DNA from: a virus
Lineage: Duplodnaviria; Caudoviricetes
IMG/VR virus record: IMGVR_UViG_3300043786_001648
Coordinates: 1-52,795 of that record
Reading direction: 5' to 3' (one strand)
Length of the DNA: 52,795 nucleotides
Within the stretch, counting starts at the first letter, position 1. Every line of letters begins with the position of its first letter. The notes under the pieces were generated by a model that saw only the letters and a list, made by a program, of their open reading frames with translations, was not told where the DNA came from and searched no databases. Below are positions 1,163-52,396 of this stretch, one piece after another. The position numbers were made by a program, and so were the translations under genes.

Positions 1163-1246
1163 TCCCCTGCCTCCCTTGACAGGGAGGTGGGGGATTCCTC
1201 CATGCGCCCCTGCTGCTCACCCCCTGAGCAGTGGGGGTTTCTCTTC
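1163..1246 (+). terminator. Tandem hairpins; the second is terminator-like
   Basis: TCCCCTGCCTCCC-ttgaca-GGGAGGTGGGGGA, then CCCCTGCTGCTCA-ccccc-TGAGCAGTGGGGG-TTTCTCTT. Confidence 0.65.
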
Positions 1247-1310
1247 CAATGTCGGTGCGATGCACGGTGCGCACCGACTCACCAACCCAAACCCGTGCGG
1301 AGCATGACCA

Positions 1311-1886
1311 ATGTCAGACACCACCATCGTCGCCAAGCCCGCCCCGTTCACCACCAACCCCGAAGCCCCCTTCGGCCCGTCGTGCATCTCGCCCGACTTC
1401 TACATCCTCCACAAGAAGACGGCAGACCGCGAAGCCCGCATCGCCGCCCTCGTGTCGAAGAACGAAGCCGAGGGCAAGAGCACCGACCGCGTCTTTGCCG
1501 CCATCGAGGCCGACTCGACCGCACCTCTCACGACCAACCGCAAGCAGTTGAAGGAGATCGCCGTCATCATCCCCAAGAAGCTGAAGGTCAACGACCTCTC
1601 CGACATCGACTGCACCTCCAAGTTGTGGCAGGTCATCTATGGCCTCGCCCACCTCGGCATCTACTTCTCGGGCACCGACAACCTGTCCGACCGCGGCATG
1701 CTCTCGCTGCTGCAGTCCCGCATCCTCGATGAGGAGGTCAACGACATCGTCCCGAGCCCCGACATGTCGGAGTTCATCGACCTGTCGCCCTGCCCCGTCT
1801 CGGACAGCCCCGTCGACCGCGACCAGTACCTGCCCCGCCCCGTCCGTCCTGCTGCCGTCACCATGGTTGACCCCTCGGCCCCCTGA
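1311..1886 (+). CDS. Hypothetical protein, resembling a conserved family I associate with PVC-group bacteria
   Basis: 191 aa; motifs TDNLSDRGM...FIDL...DRDQYLPRP; family association is from memory and unverified. Confidence 0.75.
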   Translation: MSDTTIVAKPAPFTTNPEAPFGPSCISPDFYILHKKTADREARIAALVSKNEAEGKSTDRVFAAIEADSTAPLTTNRKQLKEIAVIIPKKLKVNDLSDIDCTSKLWQVIYGLAHLGIYFSGTDNLSDRGMLSLLQSRILDEEVNDIVPSPDMSEFIDLSPCPVSDSPVDRDQYLPRPVRPAAVTMVDPSAP

Positions 1887-1906
1887 CCGCCCCGTCCATG
1901 TCTCCG

Positions 1907-1946
1907 CCCCCCGCACCGAGTCGTTTGGTGCGGGGGGTTTCCCTTT
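1907..1946 (+). terminator. Rho-independent terminator
   Basis: CCCCCCGCACC-gagtcgttt-GGTGCGGGGGG-TTTCCCTTT. Confidence 0.75.
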
Positions 1947-1959
1947 ACAGGATACCACC

Positions 1960-2627: not shown

Positions 2628-2668
2628 CCCAGACCCCAGACCCCAAACCCCAAACCACGAGACTCCCG

Positions 2669-3067
2669 ATGAACGACTTCAAGATCAAGCTCGAAATCTC
2701 CTTCCGAATCCCCGACGACTACAGCCCTGCGCTCGAAGCGCAGATCATCAAGTCCAGGATCGACCAGGCCCTCAACTCCATGGCCATCCAGCCGGCCGAC
2801 ACCGACAAGGGCTACGGCGTCTTCTCCGTCTCCCTGAAGGGCGAACCCCTTGTGCTCCCTCCCTTCGGACTCAAGCCCTACCGAGTCACCTGCACCGCCA
2901 CCATCCTCGAAAAGCTCGTCTTCTTCGTCGACGCCAAGGACAAGGAGGACGCCATCTCGATGTGCGACAACCGACACAACCGCTACACCGACAGGCACAT
3001 CGACGAGGCGGACAGGGAGCACCTCGAGACCACCGAGGAGGACAACTGGAAGGCGGAGCCCCAATGA
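2669..3067 (+). CDS. Hypothetical protein
   Basis: 132-aa ORF, typical codon usage, ATGA overlap with next gene. Confidence 0.75.
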   Translation: MNDFKIKLEISFRIPDDYSPALEAQIIKSRIDQALNSMAIQPADTDKGYGVFSVSLKGEPLVLPPFGLKPYRVTCTATILEKLVFFVDAKDKEDAISMCDNRHNRYTDRHIDEADREHLETTEEDNWKAEPQ

Positions 3068-3384
3068 ACCCCCACTGGAAGGAGACCCTCGAGTGGCTGG
3101 CCCGCAAGCACGGCCACCGTCTCTCGCTCCGCGCGATGGAGCGCATGCCTCACCTCTTCTACCTGTTCCACGGACCCCGCGTCGAGGTCAAGACCGTCTA
3201 CGACGACGGCACCCAATGGGTGCGCCGAGGCTACGTCGGCTGCTCCTCGGGACACAACCCCGTGTTCCTCCTCCTCCCCCGCTGCGACTCGTCGGGATCG
3301 TCCGACGTCCTGCACGAGCGCGACGAGATCAAGATCGTCCCGAACCCCCGCTACTTTACAGACAAGGAAACTTGTGTACCATAG
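3064..3384 (+). CDS. Hypothetical protein
   Basis: ATGA coupling, GGAG RBS; MNPHWKETLE...RRGYVGCSSG. Confidence 0.7.
   Translation: MNPHWKETLEWLARKHGHRLSLRAMERMPHLFYLFHGPRVEVKTVYDDGTQWVRRGYVGCSSGHNPVFLLLPRCDSSGSSDVLHERDEIKIVPNPRYFTDKETCVP
3355..3382 (+). promoter_or_regulatory. Putative sigma70-type promoter
   Basis: TTTACA-16nt-TACCAT in an AT-rich patch, immediately before the AGGAG RBS of the next gene. Confidence 0.55.
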
Positions 3385-3391
3385 GAGACCA

Positions 3392-4440: not shown

Positions 4441-4513
4441 ACCGCTCCGCCTCTTCGCACCCCCACTGATGCGACCAGTGGGGGCCCCCCTTCACCCCTT
4501 TACGAGACACGCA

Positions 4514-6196: not shown

Positions 6197-6264
6197 CACC
6201 CCCACTGGTCCGAGCGGGGGCGATGCGGCCGCCCCCTTTACCACCCACCCCACGAGACAATACC

Positions 6265-7706: not shown

Positions 7707-8365
7707 TCGAGCTCCACCAGCTGAAGGGCCACAAGGACTGCACGGCGTGCGAGCGGCACGCCGAATGCCCGAGGAACCCGGGGGTCCCCACCGAAAGGTG
7801 GGGGCTCCCTCCCTCCCCATCCGTGCCCGTGCTCGTCGTCGTCGGCCCGTGCTCCACGTACACCGACCACATCCTGTGGTCCCCCTTCTACGGCAAGACG
7901 GGCGACGTCCTCCGCAACATCCTGCTTGACGAACTCGCTACTTTGTGTACCATCTACGGCACGGCACTCGTCCGCTGCCACTCCGCCACGCCCCCGAAGT
8001 CGAGGCACTACAAATCCTGCCGCCCGCACCACGAGGACGACGTCCGCCACATCCTCGGCGAACACCCTTGCTCCGACGTGCGCTTCCTACTTCTCGGCTC
8101 CGACGCCGTCGCCCAGTTCCACCGCACCTGGACCGGCAAGCCCCGCTCCTTCAGGGACGCGCTCGCCTCGAACGGGCGCCCTCTCCAAATCGCCACCCGC
8201 CAGTGCGCCGTCTTCTCCACGTACTACCCGGGCGCCGTGCTCCGGAACAACTCCCTGATCCATTCCGTCGAGGACCACATCGAGCTCCTCGTCAACACCA
8301 TCCGCGGACATGCCCCCGTCCCCACCGAACCCGTCATCCTTCCCGTCAGGGGCCCACGCTCCTGA
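7703..8365 (+). CDS. Uracil-DNA glycosylase family 4-like protein (catalytic motifs degenerate)
   Basis: CTAC..H cluster motif, PFYGKTG..L, ALVRC, C, LLLG..A, TYYPGAVLR (canonical TYHPA..LR). Confidence 0.7.
   Translation: MIELHQLKGHKDCTACERHAECPRNPGVPTERWGLPPSPSVPVLVVVGPCSTYTDHILWSPFYGKTGDVLRNILLDELATLCTIYGTALVRCHSATPPKSRHYKSCRPHHEDDVRHILGEHPCSDVRFLLLGSDAVAQFHRTWTGKPRSFRDALASNGRPLQIATRQCAVFSTYYPGAVLRNNSLIHSVEDHIELLVNTIRGHAPVPTEPVILPVRGPRS
7926..7953 (+). promoter_or_regulatory. Putative internal sigma70-type promoter upstream of the polymerase
   Basis: TTGACG-16nt-TACCAT; shares TTGTGTACCAT with the 3355 element. Confidence 0.5.
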
Positions 8366-10349
8366 CCCCCGCACCATCAGCCTGGACATCGAGACCTATG
8401 GGATCACCCGATTCAACGCCGCCGGCCGACCGCTCCCCCGACAGACCTGCTTCCATCCCGCACGCTCCATCGCTGTCGATGGGTGCGATCGACGTGACCT
8501 TCTGCAGACCGTTTCAATCACTGTGCCCCGTGCCGATGTTCAGCTGGAACTCCTTGTTCCCGGGCCCACCTTCGTCTTCCAGCTCCACCTCGAGTCCCAC
8601 CGACGGCACCTCGCCGCCTGGCTCCGGCACGCCCGCACCATCATCGGAATGAACCTGCAGTTCGACCTCCTCTACCTGCGCTCCCAGCCCGACTTCCGCT
8701 TCCACCTCTCGTCCCAGTCCCTGATCGACCTCTCGGTCCTCAACTACCTTCACTCCGAGCTCCGTCCCGAGCGTTCGCTCAAGGCGCTCGGCCCCGTCCT
8801 CGGCACGCACGCCTACCCCAAGGAGCAACTCGACCGTGACGCACGCTACCCCGACGCCCGAGACCCCGGGCTCCACCGATACAACGCAGCCGACACCCAC
8901 AACACCATGCTCGCCTGCGCCGAGCTCGCCCGCCGCATCCGAGCCGACTACCCCTCCACTCCCAAGCTCTCCCCCGAGTGCCTCGCCCACTACTCCGACA
9001 CCATCTGGACGGTGGTCCGCATGTCGGAATCCGGAGTGCCTATGGACGCGGAGGGCCTATCCGGCCTCCACGAATCCACGCTGTCTGGCCTGCGGGACTG
9101 CGTTGCGTCCGCTGCATCCCTCGGGCTCGTACTCGAGGGGCCTGGAAGCGCACGATCCAAGCTGGACCTGATGCAGCGCACGTGCGCCTGGATCGAGGAG
9201 CACGCCGAGCCCTCCATCCGGTCGCACCCCATGTTCCAACTCACCGAGGCCCGCCGGGAGATCGCGGTCAACGACGTGAACCGCCAGCTCTTCCTCTCGT
9301 ATGCGCCCCCCACTGAACCCGGGCTCCGCATCCTCGGCCAGCACTCCTCGCTGCAGAAGCTCCTCTCCTCCTACCTCTACCCCCTGCTCCACCACCAGCG
9401 CAAGGATCCGTCCAACCGCTCGTCCCTTCTGATCCGCCGGCCCTCTTCCCCGATCGGCATCTCGTACCCCACGTGGTTCGTCACCCCCACTGCATCCAAG
9501 GACGGGGCCGGGGCGGAGGGCGGCACCCTGCAGGGCCGCATCACCTGCAAGAACTTCCGGCACCAGACCGACCCCGACGAGATCAAGGCCTTCTACCGCA
9601 GCCGCTTTCCCGGCGGCTCGATCGTAGGCTACGACCTGTCGCAGATCGAGATGGTGGTGGCCGGCCTCCTCTCGGGCGACGAGACCTTGCTCGCCGCCTT
9701 CCGCGCGGACCCGCCCCTCGATCTGCACACCGGTCGGGCCATCCAGGTCTTCGGCCCCGACATCGTGGACCACCCCGACTTCAAGAAGGTCTACCGGCAG
9801 GCGGCCAAGGGCGCCAACTTCGGGGACATCTTCCGCGCGGGCGCCGCCACCCTGCAGACCCAGGTCTTCAAGATGACCGGCGTCGTGGTCCCCATGCCCA
9901 TCTGCGACAACATCGTGCGCACCCGCTCCTTCTCGAGGCCCGGCCTGTGGGAGTGGCAGGAGCGGCTCATCGCCGAGACACGCGCCCGCGGATACGTCGA
10001 GCTCCCCTTCATCGGGCAGTCGCGCCGCTTCATGGGCGGCGACGCTTACGACATCTCCGAGATCGTGAACATGCCCATCCAATGCACGGCCGGCAACGTC
10101 CTGCTCCGCATCCAGCACCACCTGCACCGCACCCTGCCCCCGCTCGACGCGCCCCGCCCCGACATCCTCATGTTCCTCAACGTCTACGACGCCATCTACT
10201 TCGACTGCCGCGACGAAGCCGCCGTCTCCCGCCTCGACGCCCTCTTCCGTGACGCATTCACCCATGTGACAACAGCCGGATATTGGGGTAGACTGTGCGA
10301 GAAGCTGGGCCGCCACGTTCCGGTCCGATATGAACGCACCATCTACTGA
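8310..10349 (+). CDS. polA: Family A DNA polymerase with 3'-5' exonuclease domain (divergent)
   Basis: ExoI LDIET, ExoII NLQFD, ExoIII YNAAD; TLQGRIT, motif A YDLSQIE, DLH, motif B RQAAKGANFG, NMPIQCTA, motif C NVYDA. Confidence 0.9.
   Translation: MPPSPPNPSSFPSGAHAPDPRTISLDIETYGITRFNAAGRPLPRQTCFHPARSIAVDGCDRRDLLQTVSITVPRADVQLELLVPGPTFVFQLHLESHRRHLAAWLRHARTIIGMNLQFDLLYLRSQPDFRFHLSSQSLIDLSVLNYLHSELRPERSLKALGPVLGTHAYPKEQLDRDARYPDARDPGLHRYNAADTHNTMLACAELARRIRADYPSTPKLSPECLAHYSDTIWTVVRMSESGVPMDAEGLSGLHESTLSGLRDCVASAASLGLVLEGPGSARSKLDLMQRTCAWIEEHAEPSIRSHPMFQLTEARREIAVNDVNRQLFLSYAPPTEPGLRILGQHSSLQKLLSSYLYPLLHHQRKDPSNRSSLLIRRPSSPIGISYPTWFVTPTASKDGAGAEGGTLQGRITCKNFRHQTDPDEIKAFYRSRFPGGSIVGYDLSQIEMVVAGLLSGDETLLAAFRADPPLDLHTGRAIQVFGPDIVDHPDFKKVYRQAAKGANFGDIFRAGAATLQTQVFKMTGVVVPMPICDNIVRTRSFSRPGLWEWQERLIAETRARGYVELPFIGQSRRFMGGDAYDISEIVNMPIQCTAGNVLLRIQHHLHRTLPPLDAPRPDILMFLNVYDAIYFDCRDEAAVSRLDALFRDAFTHVTTAGYWGRLCEKLGRHVPVRYERTIY
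10266..10294 (+). promoter_or_regulatory. Putative internal promoter for the HTH gene
   Basis: GTGACA-17nt-TAGACT in a patch of atypical codons at the 3' end of the polymerase gene. Confidence 0.5.
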
Positions 10350-10352: not shown

Positions 10353-10643
10353 ATGCAACCCAACCACCGAAAGGTCGTCGCCCTTCTCCGCAAGGGCCAC
10401 AACGCAGCGCAGGTCGCCGAGCAAGTCGGCCTGTCCCGCAAGCGGGTCTTCGACCTGGCCCGCCGCCACTCCCTTCCCACGAACCCCCTCGTCAAGCAGG
10501 GCGGACGGATCGAGAAGCAGATCGTCGAGGCCTCCCGGGTCCTCACGATCCCCGAGATCTCCCTTGCCTTCCGCCTGGCCGAGCCCGTGGTCCGCGAGAT
10601 CCTGACCCGGGTGGACCGCCAGACCAAGGCCGTGCTCCGTTGA
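10353..10643 (+). CDS. Helix-turn-helix DNA-binding protein
   Basis: GHNAAQVAEQVGLSRKRV HTH and a second HTH-like segment, LTIPEISLAFRL. Confidence 0.75.
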   Translation: MQPNHRKVVALLRKGHNAAQVAEQVGLSRKRVFDLARRHSLPTNPLVKQGGRIEKQIVEASRVLTIPEISLAFRLAEPVVREILTRVDRQTKAVLR

Positions 10644-11188
10644 AGAAGTCCTGGACCATCCTCCAGGACGACCGCGAGAAGACCCCGCTCCTGTTCCCCG
10701 CCCACCTCGTGATGCTCGACCCGGCCTCCGTCCCGGTCGACAGGCGCTCCGTCACGGTCGCCCTCACCGTCACCAAGAAGCGGCTCGCCACGGGGGACTA
10801 CGCCCTCCTCGGCCACGAGTCGCGCGTCCTCGTCGAGCGCAAGAAGGACCTCCCCGAGCTCTTCAACAACCTGCTCACCACGGCGGGCCGGGACCGCTTC
10901 GTCAAGGCATGCGACCGCTTGCGATCCGAGTGCGCCCATCCGATACTGATCCTCGAAGGGACCGTCGGCCACCTGGTCAGGACGGCCAAAGCCAAGCTAC
11001 CTGTGGACCCGTGGCTGGTGGTCGACGCCCTTCACCGCATCTGCCTCGAGCGCCGCATTCAAATCCTCTACCTTCCTTCCGCAACCGCCGACCAACGGCG
11101 ATCAGTGGGGGAGGAAATCGCTAGACTGATGATCAACGGAGCGATCACCCATGCCGAACCCCCCGCTTCAGACGTTCAGGGCAGTTGA
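10640..11188 (+). CDS. ERCC4-type (XPF/Mus81-like) nuclease, possible resolvase
   Basis: DDREK, L.TGDY, VERKK..EL, LILEG motifs. Confidence 0.85.
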   Translation: MKKSWTILQDDREKTPLLFPAHLVMLDPASVPVDRRSVTVALTVTKKRLATGDYALLGHESRVLVERKKDLPELFNNLLTTAGRDRFVKACDRLRSECAHPILILEGTVGHLVRTAKAKLPVDPWLVVDALHRICLERRIQILYLPSATADQRRSVGEEIARLMINGAITHAEPPASDVQGS

Positions 11189-12002
11189 GCCAGCCCACTT
11201 CGGGTTCGCCGCGGGCGCCACCCTGGCCTCGCAGCCCTTCGTCCTGTACCACGAGCGGTCCACCGCCATCAACGGCGCCGGTTCGCCCTTGCTCAACAGC
11301 GCCATCTCGTTCGCGTCCACGCTCCCGGAGAACCGGTTCAACCCATGGGAGTGGCGGCTCAACGACTCGTGCTACCCGGTCGCCGTCCCGAACGCATACG
11401 ACCGGCTCCACGTGTTCCCGATGTACGTCCTCTCCTCGAGCTCCGGCCTCGCCAGCGACCTCGCCTTCGGCACGGTCACCACCTACAACGCGCCGTTCGT
11501 CATGCCGTTCGGGCTGTGCTCGCAGACCCGCAACTACTCCACCTCGAACGCGCTGAACCCCCAGGTCTGCCGCCTGCCCGACGACATCCTCGCCGCCCTC
11601 GGCGTGGTCCGCTCGTTCAACACCCGGCTCAACGGCCTGTGGAACGTGCTGCCACCCTACGCCGTCAACTTCTCGACCTCGAACGGGCTTCTCGCCGTCG
11701 GCTCCAGCACCAACCCCACGTCCTACGGCCGGCACCAGACCGGCACCGGCACCGGCTACGCCCTGGCCGACGACCTCTCGATCTCCCAGGCCACGACCGG
11801 CCTCTTGTCCGAGACCGCCAACCGGTGGTCCTCGAACTCGAAAGTCCTCATCGGCATGGGCACCGACTTCCAGACCATGGGTTCCGAAGAGATCGTAGTG
11901 GCCCCGGGCTCGAGCCCGACCGGCCTGACGTTGTCCACGTCGGGCACCAACGGCGTGGTCTACCGCTGCGAATACTTCCTGATGGGCACCTTCCTCGGAT
12001 AA
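11151..12002 (+). CDS. Hypothetical protein, Ser/Thr/Gly/Asn-rich (virion or lysis associated?)
   Basis: 283-aa ORF, GGAG RBS, directly upstream of the holin cluster. Confidence 0.75.
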   Translation: MPNPPLQTFRAVEPAHFGFAAGATLASQPFVLYHERSTAINGAGSPLLNSAISFASTLPENRFNPWEWRLNDSCYPVAVPNAYDRLHVFPMYVLSSSSGLASDLAFGTVTTYNAPFVMPFGLCSQTRNYSTSNALNPQVCRLPDDILAALGVVRSFNTRLNGLWNVLPPYAVNFSTSNGLLAVGSSTNPTSYGRHQTGTGTGYALADDLSISQATTGLLSETANRWSSNSKVLIGMGTDFQTMGSEEIVVAPGSSPTGLTLSTSGTNGVVYRCEYFLMGTFLG

Positions 12003-12658: not shown

Positions 12659-13189
12659 TTGCTCAACCGCAGCCGAAAGGCCGCCGACCACGTTGGCTTC
12701 CTGACGCTGTGGTCCAACGAGGCCCACCGCAAGCAGCGGTTCCCCCGGTGGTCCCGGGACGAGATCCTCTCTGAGGCCTACGTCCAGGCCGACCGCCTCC
12801 TCGGCACCGTCTACGACCCGTCCAAGTCCACGGTCGTCACGTTCCTCAAGTCGTTCCTGTGGGGCGCCGTCCACTACGCCTACTGGACCGGATCCGGCTA
12901 CCGCTTCACGGAGTCCGGGCTCCGCTTGAAGTTGTCCGTGACAAACGATACACTCTGTGAAGAGGTCGCCCGCCCTGCCTCCCCCACTGATCCGGATCTT
13001 CCGGACCTGACGGAGGAGGAGTGGACGATCGTCCGCCTTCGTCGCGACGGATACACCATGATCCGCATCGCAGCGGTCCTCGGCCTGAAGTCCCCGCAGT
13101 CCGTGTACAACCGCCTCGTCAAGATCAGGGACAAGATCCAAGGAGAGAAAAATGCCCCCCGAGATCCCGCCGACCCCGCTCCCGACTGA
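12659..13189 (+). CDS. Sigma-factor-like protein (region 2 + region 4 HTH)
   Basis: DEILSEAY...YDPSKS..TFL...LWG and LTEEEWTIVRLRRDGYTMIRIAAVLG...SVYNRL; GGAGGAG RBS. Confidence 0.7.
   Translation: MLNRSRKAADHVGFLTLWSNEAHRKQRFPRWSRDEILSEAYVQADRLLGTVYDPSKSTVVTFLKSFLWGAVHYAYWTGSGYRFTESGLRLKLSVTNDTLCEEVARPASPTDPDLPDLTEEEWTIVRLRRDGYTMIRIAAVLGLKSPQSVYNRLVKIRDKIQGEKNAPRDPADPAPD
12926..12954 (+). promoter_or_regulatory. Putative internal sigma70-type promoter
   Basis: TTGAAG-17nt-TACACT; a CCCCCACTG site lies 26 nt downstream (12981). Confidence 0.5.
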
Positions 13190-14576
13190 CCGTGGCAAGA
13201 GCGCCCGCCAGTTCCTCGAGAGCGAGGGCCTCATCGCCCGCATCCCGTCGATCCGCAGCTCCGACTACGGCTCGGCCCTGACCGATCCGTTCGGCTACTA
13301 CCTGCGGCGCCGGCTCGGCCTGACGCCCGCGCTCATGTACTCCGAGGCCCTGTCGCGCGGCTCCTACTTCCACACCCTGTTCGCCCTCTATGACCGCGGC
13401 GACCGCTGGCAGATCTTCCAGCGCCAGTGCGCCGTGCGCCTCGCCGAGATCAACCGCATCTGCAAGGACCTCCGCATCTCGGAGAACGCCCGCGCGGAGG
13501 CCGTGCAGAACGAGCAGACCGACCAAGCCCTCGCCTCGGCATGGTTCAAGGCCTTCGAGGAACTGCCCTGCATCAAGGGCAAGTCCGCCCTCCAGTTCCT
13601 CGACTCGTCCTACACCAAGATCGGCGCCGAGCTCCGCCTCACCTGGGTCGACGAGCGGTTCCCCCGCTGCCGCCAGGTCGCGCAGTTCGACCTGCTCCTC
13701 CTCGACCGGCGCACCAACCGGCTGTGGATCGTGGACGCGAAGACGACCTCCGCACCCCCACTGATCCGCCTCTCGACCGTGCGCGAGGAGTTCCAGACCA
13801 TGCACTACTTCCACGCCCTCGAGTGGTTCCTCGAGCGCGGCGTCCTGCAGAAGCGGTTCGACCTGCCCGACGACGTCTCCATCGGCGGCATGATGCACAT
13901 GGCCGTCCTCAAGCCCTCGATCGTGTTCGGCCAGTCCGACCGCGACTTCCACCTGGAGTCCGAGGGGAAGCGCAGCGGCGTGTCGGGCCGCATCATCCGC
14001 ACCCCCGTCAACCTGCGGGACCAGGGCACCCACGTGATCCAGTGGACCGCGGGCCAGCCCTACCCCGAGCCGTTCTGCGGCACCGTGGACGAGTGCCTCG
14101 CCGAGCTGCACGAGCGCACGGGCAAGAAGCCCGAGAAGGTGTACCGCGGGGAGCCGACCCTCTCCAACTACGCGGCCCGCTGCATGCGGTGGTACATGGG
14201 GCAAGATGAGTACACTGACAAGGCCCCGGACTTCGAGAACGATCCGCCCATCAACATTTCCTACACTCATTCGTCGGTCGGGCTTGACAACGACTGGCGC
14301 TCCGACTACCTTACCCGTGTTGCCATGATCTACAAGTTGGCAACCACAGAGGCGAACCCATGCAACTTCCTGAAGAACATCGACTCGATCCGGATGGGCA
14401 ACAGGCTGGCCCACTACAGCCCCTTCTACCTGACGGAGCCGAAGGACTGGCCGTCGCTGGTGCAGTCCCAGCAGTTCCTGGTGGCGCACCGAGACGCAGC
14501 CGAGCTGCCCGAGGTGCCCGAGCCCCACGAGTTCGACGGACTGGTCGAAAGCCTCGAACCCGAACTCCAGTGCTGA
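13152..14576 (+). CDS. PD-(D/E)XK (RecB/Cas4-like) exonuclease
   Basis: AL.RGSYFH, AELRL, QFDLLL, IVDAKTT, Q..HY motifs; AAGGAG RBS. Confidence 0.8.
   Translation: MPPEIPPTPLPTDRGKSARQFLESEGLIARIPSIRSSDYGSALTDPFGYYLRRRLGLTPALMYSEALSRGSYFHTLFALYDRGDRWQIFQRQCAVRLAEINRICKDLRISENARAEAVQNEQTDQALASAWFKAFEELPCIKGKSALQFLDSSYTKIGAELRLTWVDERFPRCRQVAQFDLLLLDRRTNRLWIVDAKTTSAPPLIRLSTVREEFQTMHYFHALEWFLERGVLQKRFDLPDDVSIGGMMHMAVLKPSIVFGQSDRDFHLESEGKRSGVSGRIIRTPVNLRDQGTHVIQWTAGQPYPEPFCGTVDECLAELHERTGKKPEKVYRGEPTLSNYAARCMRWYMGQDEYTDKAPDFENDPPINISYTHSSVGLDNDWRSDYLTRVAMIYKLATTEANPCNFLKNIDSIRMGNRLAHYSPFYLTEPKDWPSLVQSQQFLVAHRDAAELPEVPEPHEFDGLVESLEPELQC
14284..14312 (+). promoter_or_regulatory. Putative internal sigma70-type promoter
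   Basis: Perfect TTGACA-17nt-TACCTT in a region of atypical codon usage. Confidence 0.6.
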
Positions 14577-14932
14577 TGTTCGAGAACGAGTACGTGGCGG
14601 CCGTGATCGGCCCCAAGCTGCTTCCTCTCTGCCACAGCTGCTCGTCGCTCTCCGACCTCTGCTCGGAGTTCGAGAAGCAGTGGGGGTTCCGCCTCAACCG
14701 GACGAAGGCGCAGCGTTGGCTCTCGATCCTCGGCATCACGCCTCGCTCCCAGACCGTGTTCGTCGGCCTCCAGGCGGAGCCGACCCACCACCCAGTGGGG
14801 GTGACTCCGCTCGAGCCGCAGGACGTCGACCTCGACGCGGGCTTCGGCGGCCGCCTCCCCGATTCATTCATGCAGGGCGCCATGCCGGGCGGCGTCTTCG
14901 CGAACGTGGACATGCCCGGCTTCAAGGAGTGA
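14576..14932 (+). CDS. Putative winged-helix DNA-binding protein
   Basis: TGATG coupling; SLSDLCSEFEKQWGFRLNRTKAQRWLSILGIT resembles a winged HTH. Confidence 0.55.
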   Translation: MFENEYVAAVIGPKLLPLCHSCSSLSDLCSEFEKQWGFRLNRTKAQRWLSILGITPRSQTVFVGLQAEPTHHPVGVTPLEPQDVDLDAGFGGRLPDSFMQGAMPGGVFANVDMPGFKE

Positions 14933-16425: not shown

Positions 16426-16443
16426 TCCGCACCCCCACTGATA

Positions 16444-39892: not shown

Positions 39893-40235
39893 GTCGTGCC
39901 TTTCTTGCCGCGTACCCTCCCGGGACCAGCTTGATGCGCTCCTTCACGGGAGCATACTGCTTGACCACGTCCTCGGAAGGGAGAGACCCTTCGTATGCAC
40001 CCCCACTGATTCCCACGGAGGGGTGCCTGGGGCCGTTGCCGTAGTAGGACAGGCAGAGTATCCCTAGCCAAGTATCGGACAGCGTCACGGTCGCGCCCAA
40101 CGGATTGGCCTGCGCGGGTTCCTTGTCCGCGGAGCCGCCGAAGTACCAGCGCGACATCGCCTCGAAGAGGGCGAGCGGCACCCGGCACTCAGGCCTTTGA
40201 GGCTGCGGACCTTGATGGGGATGGGGTTCGTGCAT
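39741..40235 (-). CDS. Hypothetical protein between TerL and portal
   Basis: Fills the gap; internal duplication SRWYFGG / LSYYGNG; overlaps both neighbours. Confidence 0.5.
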   Translation of the reverse strand: MHEPHPHQGPQPQRPECRVPLALFEAMSRWYFGGSADKEPAQANPLGATVTLSDTWLGILCLSYYGNGPRHPSVGISGGAYEGSLPSEDVVKQYAPVKERIKLVPGGYAARKARHGNRPDQAHEGPDGAGPDRGRPRGAGDEPPVVPEGDLAGGPVLPAGGPAV

Positions 40236-42153: not shown

Positions 42154-42452
42154 CAGCCCCCACTGGTCACGAGGAGGTGCGCCGAGGCCAGCATGCAGAG
42201 CGCGGCCAGCATGTCGGCGGGGTTCTCGGTGGCGGGGCTCATGCTGTGCAGGCGGGCGGCGATCGCCGTCCACTTGTCGTTGAGGCGGCCGTCCGGGCCG
42301 ACGAGCTCCTCGCGGATGCGGCGCCCGAAGTCGGAGGCGCTCCCGACCGCGCGGTCGACGTCGATCACGCCGAGGTCCTCGTAGACGTAGGCGCCCCAGG
42401 ACGCGAAGTCGGTGTCCCGCAGCTCAGGCAGGCGGAGGTCCAGCTTCTCCAC
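42153..42452 (-). CDS. Hypothetical protein (GTG 42452 or upstream ATG 42578)
   Basis: TGATG coupling to TerL. Confidence 0.6.
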   Translation of the reverse strand: MEKLDLRLPELRDTDFASWGAYVYEDLGVIDVDRAVGSASDFGRRIREELVGPDGRLNDKWTAIAARLHSMSPATENPADMLAALCMLASAHLLVTSGG

Positions 42453-45628: not shown

Positions 45629-45796
45629 CTAGAAGAAGAAGGGCAGGTACATGGAGTTCTCAACTATCGAGAAGTCCAGAGAAGGATCTGGAGGAAGAGT
45701 ACTGCCCCCCACTGATGGCTGGGAGGAGATCGCGATCGCGGAGTTTCGGCGGGCCCTCATGGCCGCCGCGAACCTTGGTCTTCGTGCACGGGCCAT
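45629..45796 (-). CDS. Small hypothetical protein
   Basis: GAGGT RBS; MARARRPRF...LDFSIVENSMYLPFFF. Confidence 0.55.
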   Translation of the reverse strand: MARARRPRFAAAMRARRNSAIAISSQPSVGGSTLPPDPSLDFSIVENSMYLPFFF

Positions 45797-46071: not shown

Positions 46072-46081
46072 GGATGCCTCG

Positions 46082-47064: not shown

Positions 47065-47313
47065 TCAACAGGCCCACTTGCGGAGACTCTTGTTGATCCT
47101 GGACTTCGGGTCGCTCGCCGTCTTCTTGGAGGTGAGCCGCCTCTTCATGCCCTGCATCCGGGCGCAGAAGCTCCGCCGCCGGGACCCGCCCTCGGGCTGC
47201 GGCGCCTTCAGGTTCCCGCCGGTGGCGCGGTTGTACGCGGCTCGGCCCGCGGCGTTGAGACCCCCACTGGGATCCCGGTGCTCGGCCTTGAAGTTGAACC
47301 GCTTCTTCGCCAT
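47065..47313 (-). CDS. DUF6321-like small basic protein
   Basis: GGLNAAGRA.YNR.TG.NLKAP...RR.SFCARM.GMK...DP.SRINKSLRKW.C. Confidence 0.8.
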   Translation of the reverse strand: MAKKRFNFKAEHRDPSGGLNAAGRAAYNRATGGNLKAPQPEGGSRRRSFCARMQGMKRRLTSKKTASDPKSRINKSLRKWAC

Positions 47314-47861: not shown

Positions 47862-47864
47862 GGG

Positions 47865-48326
47865 TCAGGGTTCCTGGGGGCAGTGGGGGTGAAGGAGGCT
47901 GAGCATGCGGCGGGCGGCGTCCCGCGATTCGTCGATCGTGCGCTGCTCGAGCTCGACGCCGTCCATGATGCGGACCTTGTTGATCTCCTCGACAAGCATC
48001 GGAAGGTTTCGCTCGATGTATTCGCGGGACACCGAAAGAGCGTCCCTCGCGGTGAGACGGCCCTTGGCGATCTTCTCGGAGCCGGGCACCACGAAGTCGG
48101 GCTGGCCGAAGCGGCAGGCGGCCCACATGCCGATCCGGAACATGTGGAGGTTGACGAGGCAGTCGTCGTTGATGAAGAGGAGCGGCACCCTGATGCGCCG
48201 GCACAGTCGGCGGAAGGCGCTCGGGGAGAGCTGCATCTCGGTGCAGAATCTGGACTCGTGGACCCAGCGGAGCCCGCCGCCGAGGCTGAACGACATGCCG
48301 TCGCGCTTCTGCTTTCTCTTGGTCAC
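47865..48326 (-). CDS. Hypothetical protein (possible DNA-binding)
   Basis: GGAGG RBS, GTG start; MQLSPSAFRRLCRRIRVP. Confidence 0.65.
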   Translation of the reverse strand: MTKRKQKRDGMSFSLGGGLRWVHESRFCTEMQLSPSAFRRLCRRIRVPLLFINDDCLVNLHMFRIGMWAACRFGQPDFVVPGSEKIAKGRLTARDALSVSREYIERNLPMLVEEINKVRIMDGVELEQRTIDESRDAARRMLSLLHPHCPQEP

Positions 48327-48327
48327 G

Positions 48328-50940
48328 TCAGCCTCCCTGGTTGAAGCCCATCAGGACGCCGTCGACGAGGGACCGGAGCCGGTCCTCGTTCTTCTGGAGC
48401 AGGTCGGCCTGCTTGCGCTCGGCCCTCGAGAACTGCCGGTCGAACGTCATCTGGCCGGGCACGTCCTTCGGGGGCGGGGCCATGTCGGGCGTGCTGACGC
48501 GCGGGGTGCCGCGCATGGCGGCCTGCTGTTCCCGGAGGTACCGCTGCACGTTGGCCGCGGCCGGGCTGCCGGCTCCGCCCCTTTGGGCGTCCCATGCGTT
48601 CACGCGCCCGCGCGGGACCCCCGAGAAGGCAGCGTCGTCGCCGGTGCGCATGGCGCCGCGGTTGATGAGGTTCTCGGACGGGTAGTCGGTGACGGGGCTG
48701 TTGAAGAAGGTGCGGAGCTTCGAGACGGCCTCGTCGGGGGTGGCGGCCGCGAAGTTCGAGTTGAGGTACTTCTGGGCCTGCTGGACCTCGGGCACGTCGA
48801 AGCCGCCCTTGAGCTGCTTCAGGTTGCCCTTGATGAGCCAGCCGTCGGCGTCGGTCCCGAAGAACGGGTACCACTCGCCCGCAGTCTTGCCGGAGGTGCC
48901 GCCCTGGCTCCGGTAGAAGGGGACGGTCTCGCCGTTCACCTTGAGGAACACGACCGGGCGGCCGCCTTCGCCGGGGCTGTCGATGACGGTGAAGGAGCCG
49001 GTGCGGCCGGTCTTCGGGTCGGTGACGACCTGGAAGGTGGGGCTGTCGGGCGCCGTCTGGAACTCGCGGACGACGTTGAGGTTCTTGGTGTCGGAGGGCG
49101 CCGTCGACCGGCGGAACCCGGGCAGCAGCCCTTGTTCGGCGGTCTCCCGGACCGCGATCCCCGGATCGACCTTGCCCGATGCGGATGCGTCGCGGGCGGC
49201 GGCCTCGGGGGTGGTGCGGGCCGTGGCGGCCAGGCCTTCCTTGGACGCGGGCGCGGGCGCGGGAGCCGCCTTGGCTTCGGCCTGCACGGTCGACAGGGCG
49301 TCGTCGGTGACGGAGCCCGGGGGCAGCTGGCGCGACACGGGCGCGGGCCCGGGCGGCGGAGTCACGAGCGTGCGCTCGAGCTGGCGGTTCGGCGCCGCGG
49401 GACCGGGAGGGGGCGTCACGAGCGTCCGGGGAGGCAGCTGGCCCTGCGGCGGCTCGGGAGCAGTGGGGGGCACCAGGCGCTGCTTGCGAATCACGGGGAG
49501 CATCAGGCCGAGGCCAGCCATGAGGGTGTCGTCCTCCATGGTCTCGGAGGAAGCCGCCTGGTTCATGGCTCCGATTCCGGCGATGCCGGCCCCGACCGGG
49601 GCGCCCGGGCCCACGGCGCTGCCGAGGTAGGCGAGGCTCTCGAGCTGGGATCCGAGGTTGAGGCCGGGGGTGCGCTCGTTGAGGCCCTGGACGCCGGCCG
49701 CGAGATGCTCCCCGAAGCTCTGCGGGCCCTCGGGTCCGGGCGAGATCGTGGTGCCGTAGCGATCGGGGTAGGCGCGGGCGAGCCTGCGGTTCAGGTCGGC
49801 GTGGAAGCCGGCGAGACCGCGCTCGCCCATGGTGGCGACGTCGACGCCCTGACGCTTGTACTCCTCGACCAGCTTCTCGTACTCGGCGCGGTACTCGGGC
49901 GGCCGGGAGGCCCACGCGGCCTCGAGCCTTCCGTCCATGCCGAGCGCGGCCTTCTCCATGGCGCCCGCGGTCACGGGTCCCTGGGCCTGGGCCTCGAGGT
50001 CGGAGAGTGCGGCCATCTGCTCGCCCATCGGGTAGTCGGCGAGCGTCTTGATCATGGCGTTGCGGGCCGCGGGGTCCATCGCGCGGAGCCGGGCGCCGAA
50101 GCCCTCCTCCTCGCGGCCGAGCGCGGCGATCCGCTGCTTCACCTCCGGAGACAGCCTGTTGAGCACGAAGTCCGATTCGGTGGGTTCGCCCGGCTTCGGG
50201 CTCGGAGGAAGCGGCCTGGTCGGCTTGGCGTCGGGACCCCACGTCCTGTAGAACTCGCGGTAGATGGCCGGGTCTATCCCTGGTTCGGCGACTTCGGAGA
50301 GGGCGCTCTGGGGCGTGGAGCGGAGGAGCCCGCGAATGTCGGACTGGGACTTGACAGGCGGAGCAGATTGGGTAGGCTGTTCGGCAGCAGTCGCAGAAGC
50401 AGTCGAAGAAGCAGCACGGTCTCTCTCGTCACGACGCTCCCGCGCGGCCCTACGGGCTGCCCCTTCTGCCCTAGTCCTTTCAAGCATCAGTTCGTAGTTT
50501 CGGGCCGACTGTCGGCCGAGGCGCTCCGACTCGCGCTCGACGGCTCCAAGTCGGTTGAGCTCGTTGCGGTACCTCTCGCCGACCCTCTTGTAGGAGAGGG
50601 CCGGGACTGCTTCGCCGCGGGCCTCGCGCTCCTTGAGCCCGGCGAGCTCGGCCTCGTACATGGTCTTGGCCGCGACACGCTGCTCGGACTGGTCCATCAT
50701 CGAGCGGTACTTGTAGGAGCGGGGGTAGTCGCCGCGGGCGTCCGGAACCTGCCGGGGCCGAGGGGCGGGGGCCGGCGTGGGCGCGGGTGCGGTGGGACGC
50801 GGAGCAGGAGGCGCGACGGGGCGTGCTTGTCGCGCGGCGGCGGGAGCGGCCGTCTGCGGTGGAACCCGGCGGGAGAAGCCCATCGGGTTCGACCAGTCGG
50901 CCGTGAAGAAACTAGACCAGGGATCAGGAAGCTGGGACAT
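48328..50940 (-). CDS. Large low-complexity protein with a compact C-terminal globular domain
   Basis: AAGGAG RBS before ATG 50940; Pro/Ala-rich linkers; domain VPFYRSQGGTSGK..GEWYPFFG...GWLIKG. Confidence 0.75.
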   Translation of the reverse strand: MSQLPDPWSSFFTADWSNPMGFSRRVPPQTAAPAAARQARPVAPPAPRPTAPAPTPAPAPRPRQVPDARGDYPRSYKYRSMMDQSEQRVAAKTMYEAELAGLKEREARGEAVPALSYKRVGERYRNELNRLGAVERESERLGRQSARNYELMLERTRAEGAARRAARERRDERDRAASSTASATAAEQPTQSAPPVKSQSDIRGLLRSTPQSALSEVAEPGIDPAIYREFYRTWGPDAKPTRPLPPSPKPGEPTESDFVLNRLSPEVKQRIAALGREEEGFGARLRAMDPAARNAMIKTLADYPMGEQMAALSDLEAQAQGPVTAGAMEKAALGMDGRLEAAWASRPPEYRAEYEKLVEEYKRQGVDVATMGERGLAGFHADLNRRLARAYPDRYGTTISPGPEGPQSFGEHLAAGVQGLNERTPGLNLGSQLESLAYLGSAVGPGAPVGAGIAGIGAMNQAASSETMEDDTLMAGLGLMLPVIRKQRLVPPTAPEPPQGQLPPRTLVTPPPGPAAPNRQLERTLVTPPPGPAPVSRQLPPGSVTDDALSTVQAEAKAAPAPAPASKEGLAATARTTPEAAARDASASGKVDPGIAVRETAEQGLLPGFRRSTAPSDTKNLNVVREFQTAPDSPTFQVVTDPKTGRTGSFTVIDSPGEGGRPVVFLKVNGETVPFYRSQGGTSGKTAGEWYPFFGTDADGWLIKGNLKQLKGGFDVPEVQQAQKYLNSNFAAATPDEAVSKLRTFFNSPVTDYPSENLINRGAMRTGDDAAFSGVPRGRVNAWDAQRGGAGSPAAANVQRYLREQQAAMRGTPRVSTPDMAPPPKDVPGQMTFDRQFSRAERKQADLLQKNEDRLRSLVDGVLMGFNQGG
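49310..49440 (-). repeat. Intragenic tandem repeat
   Basis: QL..RTLVTPPPGPA..R repeated about 2.5 times. Confidence 0.7.
50351..50378 (+). promoter_or_regulatory. Putative sigma70-type promoter (antisense to the late gene, pointing at the helicase)
   Basis: TTGACA-16nt-TAGGCT in a patch of atypical codons. Confidence 0.5.
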
Positions 50941-50957
50941 AGGTGTCTCCTTCAGGA

Positions 50958-50986
50958 AGGATAATCGGATGACGCTGGGCACACAA
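50958..50986 (-). promoter_or_regulatory. Putative promoter for the leftward (late) arm
   Basis: On - strand: TTGTGT-17nt-TATCCT directly upstream of the AAGGAG RBS and ATG 50940. Confidence 0.45.
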
Positions 50987-52396
50987 CAAAATCCGCTGAG
51001 GACTACGGAGCCGATGAAGGTCGCACGGGCGATGCTGAAGGTCTGTCACGAGGACGGGCTTGGGCTGAAGGAGGTGCAGGGGAGGTTGTTCGAGTGGTAC
51101 GGCGGCAAGTGGGTGCAGAGGGACCTGCAGTGGCTCGAGGACGCCGTGTGGCGGTGGACCGAGGACCTGCACGTGAGCGACGATCCGAACGGGCTCGTGG
51201 TCGAGAGGTACGGGCCGACGGAGTCGAAGGTGAACGGGATCGTGCGGGCGATGCAGGCGCTGTGCCGGGTGGCGGGCACCGAGGTGCCGCAGTGGCTGCG
51301 GCCGGAGCTGAGGGACAGGCTCGAGGACCCCCACTGCTCGGTGAGCTTCAGGGACGTCGTGGTGGACGTGCGGGCGAGCGCGGCGTCCGGGGGGATCGTG
51401 TGCGTGCCGCGGACGGTGGAGTGGTTCGAGCCGTGCGTGGTCGACGTGGATTTGGATGGGGATGCCGGGTGTCCAAGGTGGATGCGGTGCCTCGAGGAGT
51501 GGAGCGGCGGCGACGAGGCGTGGAAGGAGCTTCTGCAGCGGTGGATGGGCTACTCGCTGATGAGCCACCGAAGGTACGCCAAGTGGATGCTTTTTCATGG
51601 GAAGATCAGGGCCGGCAAGGGGACGATCGGAACCGTGATGCGGTGGCTGATCGGCGGGACCGGGTTCGTGGGCACGAGTCTGGACGAGCTGGCCGGCAGC
51701 TTCGGGCTCGACGGGATCGAGTTCGCGCGCGTCATGTGCGTGAGCGAGGTCTCGGCCCTGGATTCGAGGGAGGGAGAGGTCGCCGTGCGGGTCCTCAAGA
51801 ATGTGCTCGGCAGGGACCCGATCTCGGTGAACGCGAAGTACAAGCGGCAGATCCGGAACGTCGTGATCAACGCGGCGCCGTGGGTGCAGAGCAACGAGAT
51901 CCCCCAGCTGCCGAACAAGGGGAGAGGGCTCAGCGGCAAGATGCTGGTGTTGCCGTTCGAACACTCGTTCGAGGGCCGTGAGCAGTTCGACCTGATGGAC
52001 GTGCTCAAGGGAGAGCTGCAGGGGATCGCGGCCTGGGCGCTCAGGGGAGCCATCAAGCTGGAGGCGGCCCCCGAGACCGAGAAGTTTCCCCCCACTGGAT
52101 CGGCCGCGCGGCTGGTCCGGGACTACCACCTGGCCAACAACCCGTTCGATTACTTCTTGGAGGCCCGGTTCGTGAGGAATCCCCAGGGGTTCGTGAGCAA
52201 CGAGGCCGTCCGGAGGGAATGGAAGGACTGGGTGCGGTCCAATAACGTGCAGATGAAGGTGGCCGACAACCAACTGCTAGGGCGTATTGTGAGCGAGAGT
52301 AGCTGGATGTTGAACAGAGTCAGGAAAGGTGCTGAAGGATTGCGCGCGATCGAGGGTCTTTCGCTGAAGAAGGACAAAGACGACGAACTGGACTGA
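50969..52396 (+). CDS. D5/P4-like SF3 helicase (no primase domain visible)
   Basis: Walker A GKIRAGKGT, Walker B CVSE, G.D.ISVNAKYK, SNEIP, VLPF, L.GI..WA..G. Confidence 0.85.
   Translation: MTLGTQQNPLRTTEPMKVARAMLKVCHEDGLGLKEVQGRLFEWYGGKWVQRDLQWLEDAVWRWTEDLHVSDDPNGLVVERYGPTESKVNGIVRAMQALCRVAGTEVPQWLRPELRDRLEDPHCSVSFRDVVVDVRASAASGGIVCVPRTVEWFEPCVVDVDLDGDAGCPRWMRCLEEWSGGDEAWKELLQRWMGYSLMSHRRYAKWMLFHGKIRAGKGTIGTVMRWLIGGTGFVGTSLDELAGSFGLDGIEFARVMCVSEVSALDSREGEVAVRVLKNVLGRDPISVNAKYKRQIRNVVINAAPWVQSNEIPQLPNKGRGLSGKMLVLPFEHSFEGREQFDLMDVLKGELQGIAAWALRGAIKLEAAPETEKFPPTGSAARLVRDYHLANNPFDYFLEARFVRNPQGFVSNEAVRREWKDWVRSNNVQMKVADNQLLGRIVSESSWMLNRVRKGAEGLRAIEGLSLKKDKDDELD

Follow-up and report, generated by a model that had tools for sequence, protein, structure and literature searches.

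The window and its genes

The subject of this study is a nine-base DNA word, CCCCCACTG, that recurs throughout the genome of an uncultured tailed phage. The stretch of DNA analysed here (the window) is a whole viral record of 52,795 bases (IMG/VR record IMGVR_UViG_3300043786_001648), judged 100% complete, and it carries 35 exact copies of the word, 23 on the + strand and 12 on the − strand. The over-abundance of this word was first proposed in an original prediction made from the letters of the window. Our analysis confirms that finding and extends it from one genome to a large lineage with clade-specific words: selection maintains the word, as a signal in the DNA itself, across a large and globally spread lineage of uncultured tailed phages. 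The window phage comes from lake water. Public sequencing runs that hold the window nearly word for word are labelled as lake-water metagenomes, and, in addition to a run that may be its source, three runs from three studies hold 0.84–0.94 of its sampled words. The G+C content of the window is 66.6%, compared with the ~68% judged by eye in the original prediction.

The genes lie in two oppositely transcribed blocks. The rightward block extends from ~50.97 kb through the record end to 17.1 kb. It encodes a D5/SaPI-Rep-like superfamily 3 (SF3) helicase of 475 amino acids with a C-terminal winged helix (50969–52396, +), DUF932, GP88-family and UDG-like proteins, a family A DNA polymerase (8310–10349, +; PF00476, E = 4.3e-17), a 96-amino-acid helix-turn-helix (HTH) protein (10353–10643, +), an ERCC4/XPF-type nuclease of 182 amino acids (10640–11188, +; PF02732, E = 4.3e-8), a PD-(D/E)XK exonuclease (13152–14576, +; PF12705, E = 2.1e-10, and the exonuclease family phrog_1218) and a Sak4-like single-strand annealing ATPase (14936–15829, +; PF13479 and phrog_124). 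The leftward block (51.0 to 17.1 kb) comprises the gene for the large terminase and those for structural proteins. Profile searches of open reading frames (ORFs) covered 40 ORFs against Pfam, 30 against PHROGs and 10 against NCBIfam.

Four proteins, at 10353, 12659, 14576 and 47865, had been named for binding tests in the original prediction. The HTH protein at 10353 is a reasonable candidate reader of the word. It matches Pfam HTH families with a best E of 1.1e-5, which is below the curated cut-offs, and its gene overlaps that of the ERCC4 nuclease by 4 nucleotides (nt) and is translationally coupled to it. The order polymerase-HTH-ERCC4 is kept, across word classes, in all six relatives that hold both genes (G001, G002, G003, G009, G010 and G013 of the related records described below), and the GDY and ERK residues of the nuclease are invariant in 8/8 homologues. 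As judged from sequence, the HTH and ERCC4 proteins may form a two-part nuclease, with the latter as the candidate partner. The second of the four, the product of ORF 12659–13189 (176 amino acids), has only a weak match to region 4 of extracytoplasmic function (ECF) sigma factors (E = 0.0044, below cut-off). This ORF is conserved in the class of relatives whose word ends in …ACTG and in G013 and G014.

The SF3 helicase is an alternative candidate reader. It matches the SaPI5 primase-helicase in sequence and fold (top fold match E = 6.8e-4), and its structure model, with a pLDDT of 61.7 over the whole chain, places a winged helix at residues 411–466 with fair confidence. Directly after its gene, positions 52436–52513 are AT-rich. 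They contain a tandemly repeated unit of 14–15 nt, a run of AG and an inverted repeat of 18 nt whose arms are 94% complementary. By these features, the region looks like a replication origin.

The word exceeds chance and is selected at the DNA level

The original prediction reported at least 34 copies. All 34 of its coordinates proved correct, and one further copy, at 3069 on the + strand, had been missed. Copies occur genome-wide at the proposed density of one per 1.5 kb, with a mean gap of 1496 nt. One or two copies had been expected by chance, and our models give about one. Markov models of orders 0 to 4 yield expectations of 1.34, 0.90, 0.43, 0.31 and 0.71 copies, respectively, and an order-3 model with the copies masked yields 0.18. 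Dinucleotide shuffles hold 1.08 ± 0.99 copies (largest 4), and none of 100 shuffles reaches 35.

The boundaries of the word are sharp. CCCCCACT is always followed by G and CCCCACTG is always preceded by C (35/35 each), and the 27 one-mismatch variants of CCCCCACTG have four occurrences together compared with 9.7 expected, which leaves no halo of near matches. The flanks are biased in the way first described: in 24 of the 35 copies the word follows an A. Two positions past its end there is a T (21 copies) or an A (10), 31 in all, and three positions past its end a C (18) or a T (11), giving a 3' flank of roughly R-T-C. The flanks are random beyond ~3 nt.

Genes were called by a home-made procedure using a simple codon-usage score (87% coding in the first pass), and the calls were then edited by removing three and adding the helicase by hand. 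Twenty-five copies of the word lie wholly inside called genes. By comparison, when synonymous codons were permuted within each gene, a procedure that keeps every protein and the codon usage of each gene, 1.44 ± 0.98 copies were found, with a largest value of 5 in 1000 shuffles. The 25 genic copies span all six frame and orientation classes (2/8/2 copies in frames 0/1/2 when the C-rich strand is read as sense, and 1/4/8 when the G-rich strand is). They also take up a sizeable share of codons that are rare in the window. AGT accounts for 27 of 1057 Ser codons, 8 of which fall in the word; ACT accounts for 47 of 947 Thr codons, 8 of which fall in the word; and CCA accounts for 37 of 965 Pro codons, 2 of which do so. 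Because of the codon-preserving shuffles, the six frame classes, the rare codons, and the conservation and turnover in relatives reported below, selection is shown to act on the DNA of the word and not on peptides, as the earlier observations on frames and rare codons had led its author to propose. The word is therefore a recognition site for some protein.

These data also bear on whether the word has a function at all. It is extremely improbable that the word arose from repeated peptides, from a small mobile repeat, or through biased mutation or faulty assembly. Two pairs of copies do share longer identity, of 23 nt and 16 nt, as a repeat would predict. However, the codon-preserving shuffles, the six frame classes, the flanks that are random past ~3 nt and the absence of a variant halo speak against such an origin, as do the recurrence of the word in independent assemblies and its conservation in relatives. 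A peptide repeat was rejected on the basis of the six frame classes and the codon-preserving shuffles. A tandem, dispersed or small mobile repeat (of the kind of miniature inverted-repeat transposable elements or repetitive extragenic palindromes, MITE/REP) was rejected on the basis of the random flanks, with no repeat families beyond the two pairs.

The next most over-represented word in the window, AGGGCAA, has 23 copies (for example at 434, 16358 and 46928) compared with ~4 expected. All 23 copies are co-oriented with genes and read Lys-Gly-Lys/Asn. This enrichment is a coding effect, in contrast to that of the nine-base word.

Clade-specific variants of the word occur throughout the lineage

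A terminase search of viral contigs yielded 55 related loci. In relatives at 71–82% terminase identity, including one genome at 49% G+C, the same nine-base word is the commonest 9-mer. We refer to the window as G000 and to related viral records as G001 to G014. Whole records of G001 through G005 carry 35 (23/12 on the two strands), 24, 21, 18 and 12 copies of CCCCCACTG, respectively, compared with 0–5 copies of a reversed-word control. More distant clades carry words of their own: CCCCCACTC has 17, 10 and 11 copies in G006 through G008, which are at 41–42% G+C; TTCCCCGCT has 18–24 copies in G009; TTCCCCACTA has 13–18 copies in G010; AACCCCTCC has 44–64 copies in the 40.5 kb of G011; ACCCCTCCAC is the word of G012; and CTCCCCCAC has 12 copies each in G013 and G014.

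GTCCCCCCAC joined these words through a second sweep that started from the ERCC4 nuclease. This sweep used the 45 of 80 loci that are at least 12 kb long, and in 40 of these 45 the most enriched 8-mer contains CCCC. Every relative examined has either the same word or a clade variant with a CCCC core (…ACTC, …ACTA, …GCT, …TCC or C6AC), and the number of copies per record across the lineage is 10–64. A hundred or more contigs of this lineage can now be found. On a terminase tree of 32 rows, comprising the window and the 31 of 55 loci that remained after leaving out those with <8 kb or <550 aligned residues, the word classes are coherent, and the variants follow the tree across 38–67% G+C. The 13 rows of the …ACTG class form a single clade (support 100/100) and range over 49–67% G+C, and the …ACTC class spans 41–54% G+C.

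Some members of the lineage hold a second over-represented word. ACTACCTG has 13 copies in G003 (L070–L072) and 9 copies compared with 0.28 expected in locus L019, and the relatives concerned also include L020. In a marine clade (L029, L031 and L062), CCACGAGG has 7 copies compared with 0.32 expected in both L029 and L031.

A search of a collection of isolate phages gave no match to the window by DNA or by terminase protein. Literature searches, which did not extend to supplementary files, returned only unrelated eukaryotic papers for the exact words, and those for genome-wide phage words found none like CCCCCACTG. The original prediction spoke of a candidate undescribed DNA-recognition system. 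The part of this claim that concerns a recognition site is supported by our data, whereas 'phage-specific' and 'undescribed' go further than the data do.

Sites are kept or lost as whole words in relatives

The window and G001 are ~77% identical where alignable, and each has 35 copies of the word. Sixteen of the 28 aligned window sites and 16 of the 30 aligned G001 sites are shared, and the others face unrelated sequence. The proportion of window sites that are fully kept can be compared with that of random 9-mers: 16/28 versus 0.195 for G001, 11/11 versus 0.041 for G002 and 7/18 versus 0.175 for G003. Among aligned relatives, site conservation is all-or-none. Conservation in related phages had been named as a check on the prediction, and its outcome is favourable, with kept sites far above random 9-mers and with variants that are lineage-wide. 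The word also recurs in independent assemblies from many samples, at shared and non-shared places. Each of these results, in particular the values for G001 and G002, argues further against a word that has no function. Contigs of the public runs X2 and X3 match the window with 0 differences over pieces of 0.9–3.4 kb, and when contigs of X2 through X5 are compared with the window, 0 of the 40 listed variant places (of 700) fall inside a word.

Close inverted pairs of the word that form hairpins occur once or twice per genome, and in G000, G002 and G003 they arise at non-orthologous places. This pattern suggests that the word settles at any position whose sequence can vary freely. The hairpin form can also be followed into other data. 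Among 66 viral contigs that contain it, all 16 with further copies of the word encode homologues of the phage's proteins, and 47 of the 50 without further copies encode none. When 80 of at least 118 metagenome loci with the hairpin were inspected, 75 had no further copy and no homologue, four had one more copy and one belonged to the lineage.

This anatomy resembles that of the DNA uptake sequences of naturally competent bacteria, which exist as related variants with a common core. According to the part of the literature available to us (PMC2397512), the Neisseria DNA uptake sequence (DUS) and the Haemophilus uptake signal sequence (USS) resemble the word in being 9–12-mers with a flank preference that occur in both orientations at a spacing of ~1.1–1.5 kb, in genes and as terminator-like inverted pairs. 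However, uptake sequences are dense in the chromosome of the competent bacterium, whereas dense copies of the word were found only in one phage lineage.

The likeness raises the question of a self tag, that is, a word read by a DNA-binding protein without strand processing and used in packaging, condensation, entry or site-specific modification. We regard this as rather unlikely. It is favoured by the uptake-like anatomy (a 9–10-mer with a preferred flank, both orientations, ~1 copy per 1.1–1.5 kb, a location in genes, and inverted pairs; available part of PMC2397512), by the hairpin pairs at non-orthologous places, and by the hairpin-form viral contigs, in which further copies coincide with phage homologues (16/16) and their lack with the lack of homologues (47/50). 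Yet a protein that binds double-stranded DNA has no need of the conserved strand polarity described below. A tag of the modification type is further disfavoured by a six-frame search of the window that covered, among modifying enzymes, the N6/N4 and C5 DNA methyltransferases only; no domain of either kind was recognised. To our knowledge, no phage has genome-wide packaging or entry tags, which also counts against this explanation, and a literature search for such tags found none.

Orientation follows the genome strand and not transcription

Sense-strand copies of the C-rich and the G-rich word stand at 10:6 for the rightward block and at 6:13 for the leftward block. In terms of the genome strand, the polarity is the same in both oppositely transcribed blocks (10:6 and 13:6), and it therefore follows the absolute strand and not transcription. 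Mixed orientations in the left arm had been reported before, correctly, although the actual count there is 8 + and 6 − rather than 7 and 6. The orientation of the word changes neither at the origin-like region nor at the turn in GC skew near 32 kb. The skew of the + strand is negative to ~32 kb and then near zero or positive, and this turn does not coincide with the switch in gene strand at 17.1 kb.

The same polarity is seen across the lineage. In 13 of 14 genomes, the remaining one being a tie, more copies of the C-rich word lie opposite the sense strand of the terminase gene than on it. Over seven class representatives, the strand split is 121 versus 70 (roughly 1.7:1; p = 2.8e-4), with the G-rich word on the terminase sense strand. 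Polarity in individual genomes ranges from 1:1 to 4:1, the minority strand holding 20–50% of the copies in the 14 genomes.

Copies on each strand are spaced more evenly than random, with coefficients of variation (CV) of 0.61 for the + strand of G000 (p = 0.011), 0.59 for that of G001 (p = 0.007) and 0.32 for that of G009 (p = 0.004). The CV is under the random mean in 13 of 16 strand sets, with modest p values and with genomes that are related within classes. When all sites are taken together, the spacing CV is under the random mean in 14/14 genomes, a weak effect with single p values from 0.011 to 0.46. The two orientations alternate beyond chance (Stouffer z = 3.3 over 7 genomes).

These findings can be used to evaluate whether the word is a transcription or translation signal, for example as stoperator-like repressor sites, as promoters recognised by a phage sigma factor, or in ribosome binding. 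Several copies stand directly after stop codons, 9 sites lie ≤60 nt from a gene end compared with 5.4 expected (a weak excess, p = 0.08), and the weak ECF sigma region 4 match of ORF 12659–13189 (E = 0.0044, below cut-off) would fit a role of this type. Nevertheless, we consider it very improbable: 25 of the 35 copies are genic, and the sense-strand split (14 C-rich and 21 G-rich) flips between the blocks. Ribosome-binding sites were rejected, since the G-rich copies mostly have no start codon downstream, in G011 as in the window. Stoperators point along transcription, sit mostly in intergenic DNA and are a feature of temperate phages. Like the word, they are dozens of asymmetric sites across a phage genome, but the orientation of the word ignores transcription and most of its copies are in genes, so the misfit that had been pointed out earlier holds, and an array of stoperators or promoters was rejected on these grounds. 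In addition, profile searches of the window ORFs, many of which have no family, recognised no integrase or immunity repressor. In cluster A mycobacteriophages, stoperators are read by a small monomeric HTH protein, according to the available part of one report (PMC9283540).

The evenness and polarity of the sites are also relevant to the main rival of the Chi-like reading given below, in which the word marks private nick or priming sites. Here a sequence-specific enzyme of the phage would either cut one strand at the word or begin synthesis there, so that the family A polymerase would find regularly spaced 3' ends on both strands. Such ends would replace a missing primase and would seed strand-displacement or recombination-dependent replication. 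The best candidate enzyme is the pair formed by the HTH protein (10353–10643) and the ERCC4 nuclease (10640–11188); alternatively, the winged helix of the SF3 helicase would load at the word. We hold this explanation to be possible, although doubtful.

Several observations are in its favour. A six-frame search of the window for known families recognised no Prim-Pol, Toprim_2 or DnaG zinc-ribbon domain, and PHROG primase profiles match the helicase only in their helicase half, its 475 amino acids leaving no room for a primase domain. The overlapping HTH and ERCC4 genes stay after the polymerase gene in 6/6 relatives, with the GDY and ERK residues invariant, and the word variants follow the phage tree. 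Even, kilobase-scale spacing on each strand would suit priming. By the general rules of primase recognition applied to our own alignment of the words, the variants as template would give primers of purine-G followed by a G run, and the variable last base would fall at the cryptic nucleotide of primases. There is also a precedent, described in the available part of one study (PMC3517423), in phage tf, which is nicked at 14 sites with the sequence TACT/RTGMC. This is a sharp, asymmetric 9-mer kept in relatives, and the tf genome holds only 17 sites within one substitution of it; the word of the window has the same sharpness. More generally, the nick sites of the tf/LUZ24, T5 and phiKMV groups are, like the word, lineage-specific and indifferent to genes (same source).

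Other observations are difficult to reconcile with nicking or priming. The known nick sites are 4–14 in number and all on one strand, again in the available part of PMC3517423, whereas the word occurs on both strands at 10–64 copies per record, with 20–50% on the minority strand. If both arms of the 16-nt inverted pair at 4460/4476 were nicked, a double-strand break would result. Priming is further disfavoured by an orientation that does not flip at the origin-like region or the GC-skew turn, and bidirectional lagging-strand priming was rejected for that reason. Instead of the word, the winged helix of the helicase could bind the AT-rich region at 52436–52513, which looks like a conventional origin. 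Self-loading SF3 helicases such as SaPI Rep and the alpha protein of phage P4, the latter of which binds an asymmetric 8-mer, offer a parallel for the predicted winged-helix protein of the window, whose sequence matches the SaPI5 primase-helicase. However, their iterons cluster at the origin. Copies of the word are scattered over the genome, and next to the helicase gene there is a distinct AT-rich region with repeats.

A possible Chi-like control word is the best single fit

Among known systems, the word is closest to the Chi sites of Chi-rich phages, to phage nick sites and to uptake sequences, and it fits none of the three definitions fully. The single best fit is a Chi-like, orientation-dependent signal for an end-processing helicase-nuclease, to which we assign a probability of roughly 0.4. 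We infer a tracking nuclease as the reader, with DNA ends as its entry points. The enzyme would enter at a free double-strand end, such as either terminus of the circularly permuted genome once it has been injected, the tail of a rolling circle or the end that a headful cut leaves behind. It would then track along the DNA and recognise the G-rich strand of the word (CAGTGGGGG in the clade of the window). Recognition would switch the enzyme from degradation to the production of a recombinogenic 3' end, which would feed the annealase and resolvase module of the phage and hence recombination-dependent replication. Both orientations would be needed everywhere because the ends are permuted, and a directional rolling-circle or packaging end would add the moderate polarity. 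The original prediction had set Chi aside on account of the mixed orientations. This argument no longer applies, given that a permuted genome needs both and that a polarity of 121:70 is conserved.

The sharpness of the word (35 exact copies and four one-mismatch copies) supports a Chi-like signal. So does the presence in the phage of an exonuclease, a Sak4-like annealase and an ERCC4 nuclease, a module that could use recombinogenic ends, and so do the conserved polarity, the even spacing and alternation of the two orientations, and the turnover of sites at a constant number. The ends of homology blocks lie ≤100 nt from a site two to three times as often as random sites predict (23–38% of cases compared with 12–13%), a comparison confounded by words that anchor alignments and by nearby gene ends. 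The records of G002 and G013 close on themselves with an end overlap of exactly 99 nt, which is compatible with permuted or circular maps. That both repeats have exactly this length suggests that they stem from overlaps made in assembling circular or permuted genomes and are not genuine terminal repeats, so they carry no information about where the real ends lie. Chi-rich phages provide a close parallel. In the available part of a recent study (PMC12315714), phage LLS has 23 Chi sites, or 1 per 1.86 kb, and Pseudomonas phage MD8 has 32. As described there, the sites in such phages, like chromosomal Chi, share with the word a G-rich, asymmetric sequence, a density of ~1 per 1.5–2 kb, a location in genes and a majority on the late-gene strand. 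In lambda-type phages the active orientation of Chi has the G-rich word on the late-gene strand, and in the lineage of the window the G-rich word is likewise mostly on that strand. According to the same source, Chi words are related to one another but differ between groups, as the variants of the word do.

Several features of the data weigh against a Chi-like signal. Chi is over-represented and strand-skewed in the host chromosome, which for this word is a prediction. At no fewer than 9–10 nt with a flank preference, the word is longer than any Chi known to us (5–8 nt). No RecBCD/AddAB-like helicase-nuclease was recognised in the phage with Pfam, PHROGs and NCBIfam profiles. Differences from the Chi-rich phages themselves are found in the accessible text of PMC12315714: polarity is 20:3 in LLS and 32:0 in MD8, compared with 1:1 to 4:1 here, and Chi sites are clustered near one end of LLS, whereas copies of the word are evenly spread. 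Lambdoid phages with their own recombination module also tend to lack Chi (same source), and the window phage has such a module.

The search for a host is part of the same evidence. One metagenome-assembled genome, titled Candidatus Sericytochromatia, contains a 3.2-kb contig that was the only match to the phage in a collection of species genomes. The word occurs 18 times in the 2.6 Mb of that genome, compared with 31 times for the control, and the phage terminase occurs in 1 of 401 genomes of its phylum; the link is probably a binning accident. Across 251 genomes of this phylum, which is a candidate host only, the word has 0–119 copies each, like the reversed-word control, and across 41 genomes of its class, also a candidate host only, it has 0–107 copies each, again like the control. 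Escherichia coli K-12 has 9 copies compared with 12 for the control. None of the cellular genomes searched (those of the phylum, those of the class and E. coli K-12) is rich in the word, which is present there at a chance density of about 1 per 30–150 kb, and the phylum and class are tied to the phage only by the one contig.

The reader of a Chi-like word would more probably be the RecBCD or AddAB enzyme of the host, overall possible although doubtful, than a phage-encoded protein, which overall seems to us improbable. One word in phages of 49–67% G+C would not decide between a host word and a phage word, because Chi-rich lambdoid phages infect hosts across Enterobacteriales with one Chi, as far as the available text of PMC12315714 describes. 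Considered apart from mechanism, there is a nearly even chance that the word is read by the phage's own protein, as a private self-recognition code whose variants (…ACTG, …ACTC, …ACTA, …GCT, …TCC and C6AC) co-evolve with the reader. Such a code would serve to discriminate phage from host DNA, to support nick-primed or recombination-dependent replication without a primase, or to protect the phage from its own nucleases.

Each of these outcomes would be informative. Should the reader belong to the host, the Chi-type words of uncultured bacteria from fresh water and the sea would be legible in the genomes of these phages. Both Chi and hosts could then be predicted from viral metagenomes, and the recently described Chi-rich strategy, known from temperate lambdoid phages, would be found also in an unrelated and apparently virulent lineage in which both orientations are used. 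Should the reader belong to the phage, the word would be a virus-encoded self-marking code with evolving variants, of which none was found in the literature searched, and the lineage would offer a set of naturally diversified 9–10-bp recognition modules. In both cases, the question can be tested directly, thanks to the many related genomes that differ in their variant.

Positions of the word in the window

In the first part of the rightward block, the copy at 1229–1237 (−) lies outside called genes and is kept at the aligned place in G001, and that at 3069–3077 (+) begins 2 nt past the stop of ORF 2669–3067. Copies at 4460–4468 (+) and 4476–4484 (−) form the left and right arms of the hairpin after the DUF932 gene; at the aligned place, G001 and G003 have a different GC-rich hairpin. 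The copy at 6199–6207 (+) comes directly after a TGA and outside called genes. Two copies are in the DNA polymerase gene, at 9307–9315 (+; PPTE), which is kept in G003 only, and at 9484–9492 (+; TPTA), which is kept in G001 and G002. The ERCC4 nuclease gene holds the copy at 11103–11111 (−; SVGE) and the exonuclease gene that at 13755–13763 (+; PPLI), both kept in G001, G002 and G003. Between them, the copy at 12981–12989 (+) in ORF 12659–13189 is kept in G002 only.

Two copies outside called genes, at 14678–14686 (−) and 14793–14801 (−), differ in that the former is kept in G001 and the latter is not. The intergenic copy at 16432–16440 (+), 7 nt past a stop, is kept in G001, G002 and G003. 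Near the place where the two transcription blocks converge, the copies at 16788–16796 (−) and 17131–17139 (+) are contained in the 23-nt arms of an inverted repeat (16785–16807 and 17120–17142; 91% complementary), the second arm lying at the convergence itself. The last 300 nt of the rightward block lie between these arms.

Within the leftward block, the copy at 20267–20275 (+) is in a gene for a protein of 1139 amino acids and is kept in G001 and G002, that at 21850–21858 (+; TSGG) is in ORF 21591–21953 and is kept in G003, and that at 27376–27384 (+; SSGG) is in ORF 26241–27449. A gene for a protein of 1239 amino acids has four copies: 27679–27687 (+), not kept in G001, G004 or G005; 27767–27775 (−; PPLN), kept in G001; 29830–29838 (−), kept in G001 and G005; and 30075–30083 (+; TSGG). 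The last two are held in a 16-nt inverted match (29828–29843 and 30070–30085). The copy at 31397–31405 (+) is in ORF 31161–31637, and ORF 32979–33764 has two copies that are not kept in relatives, at 33331–33339 (+; TSGG) and 33488–33496 (−; TPTA). An adaptor-like gene holds the copy at 34421–34429 (−), kept in G001.

A few sites are deeply conserved, among them the next two. The copy at 37521–37529 (+) in ORF 36962–37879 is kept in G002, G003, G004 and G005, and that at 40000–40008 (+), between ORF 37880–39892 and the large terminase gene, is kept in all five records from G001 to G005. The terminase gene itself has a copy at 42157–42165 (+; QWGL), kept in G001 and G005. Farther along are copies at 45706–45714 (+), outside called genes; at 47261–47269 (+) in the DUF6321 gene, kept in G001 and G002; at 47881–47889 (−) in the conserved ORF 47865–48326, kept in G001; and at 49461–49469 (−) in a gene for a protein of 884 amino acids. 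Finally, the helicase gene of the rightward block holds the copies at 51328–51336 (+), kept in G001 and G002, and 52089–52097 (+), kept in G001, G002 and G004.

Additional observations on the window

The window encodes no tRNAs. Four uncharacterised window proteins gave no match in sequence searches of the PDB, the structure model of ORF 11151–12002 has a pLDDT of 0.24, and the literature on DUF932 held nothing useful. In four lake-water runs, the summed contig depth over positions 2002–2668 of the window is 52–242, compared with ~4–13 in most neighbouring bins. This segment probably contains something shared with more abundant DNA in the samples.

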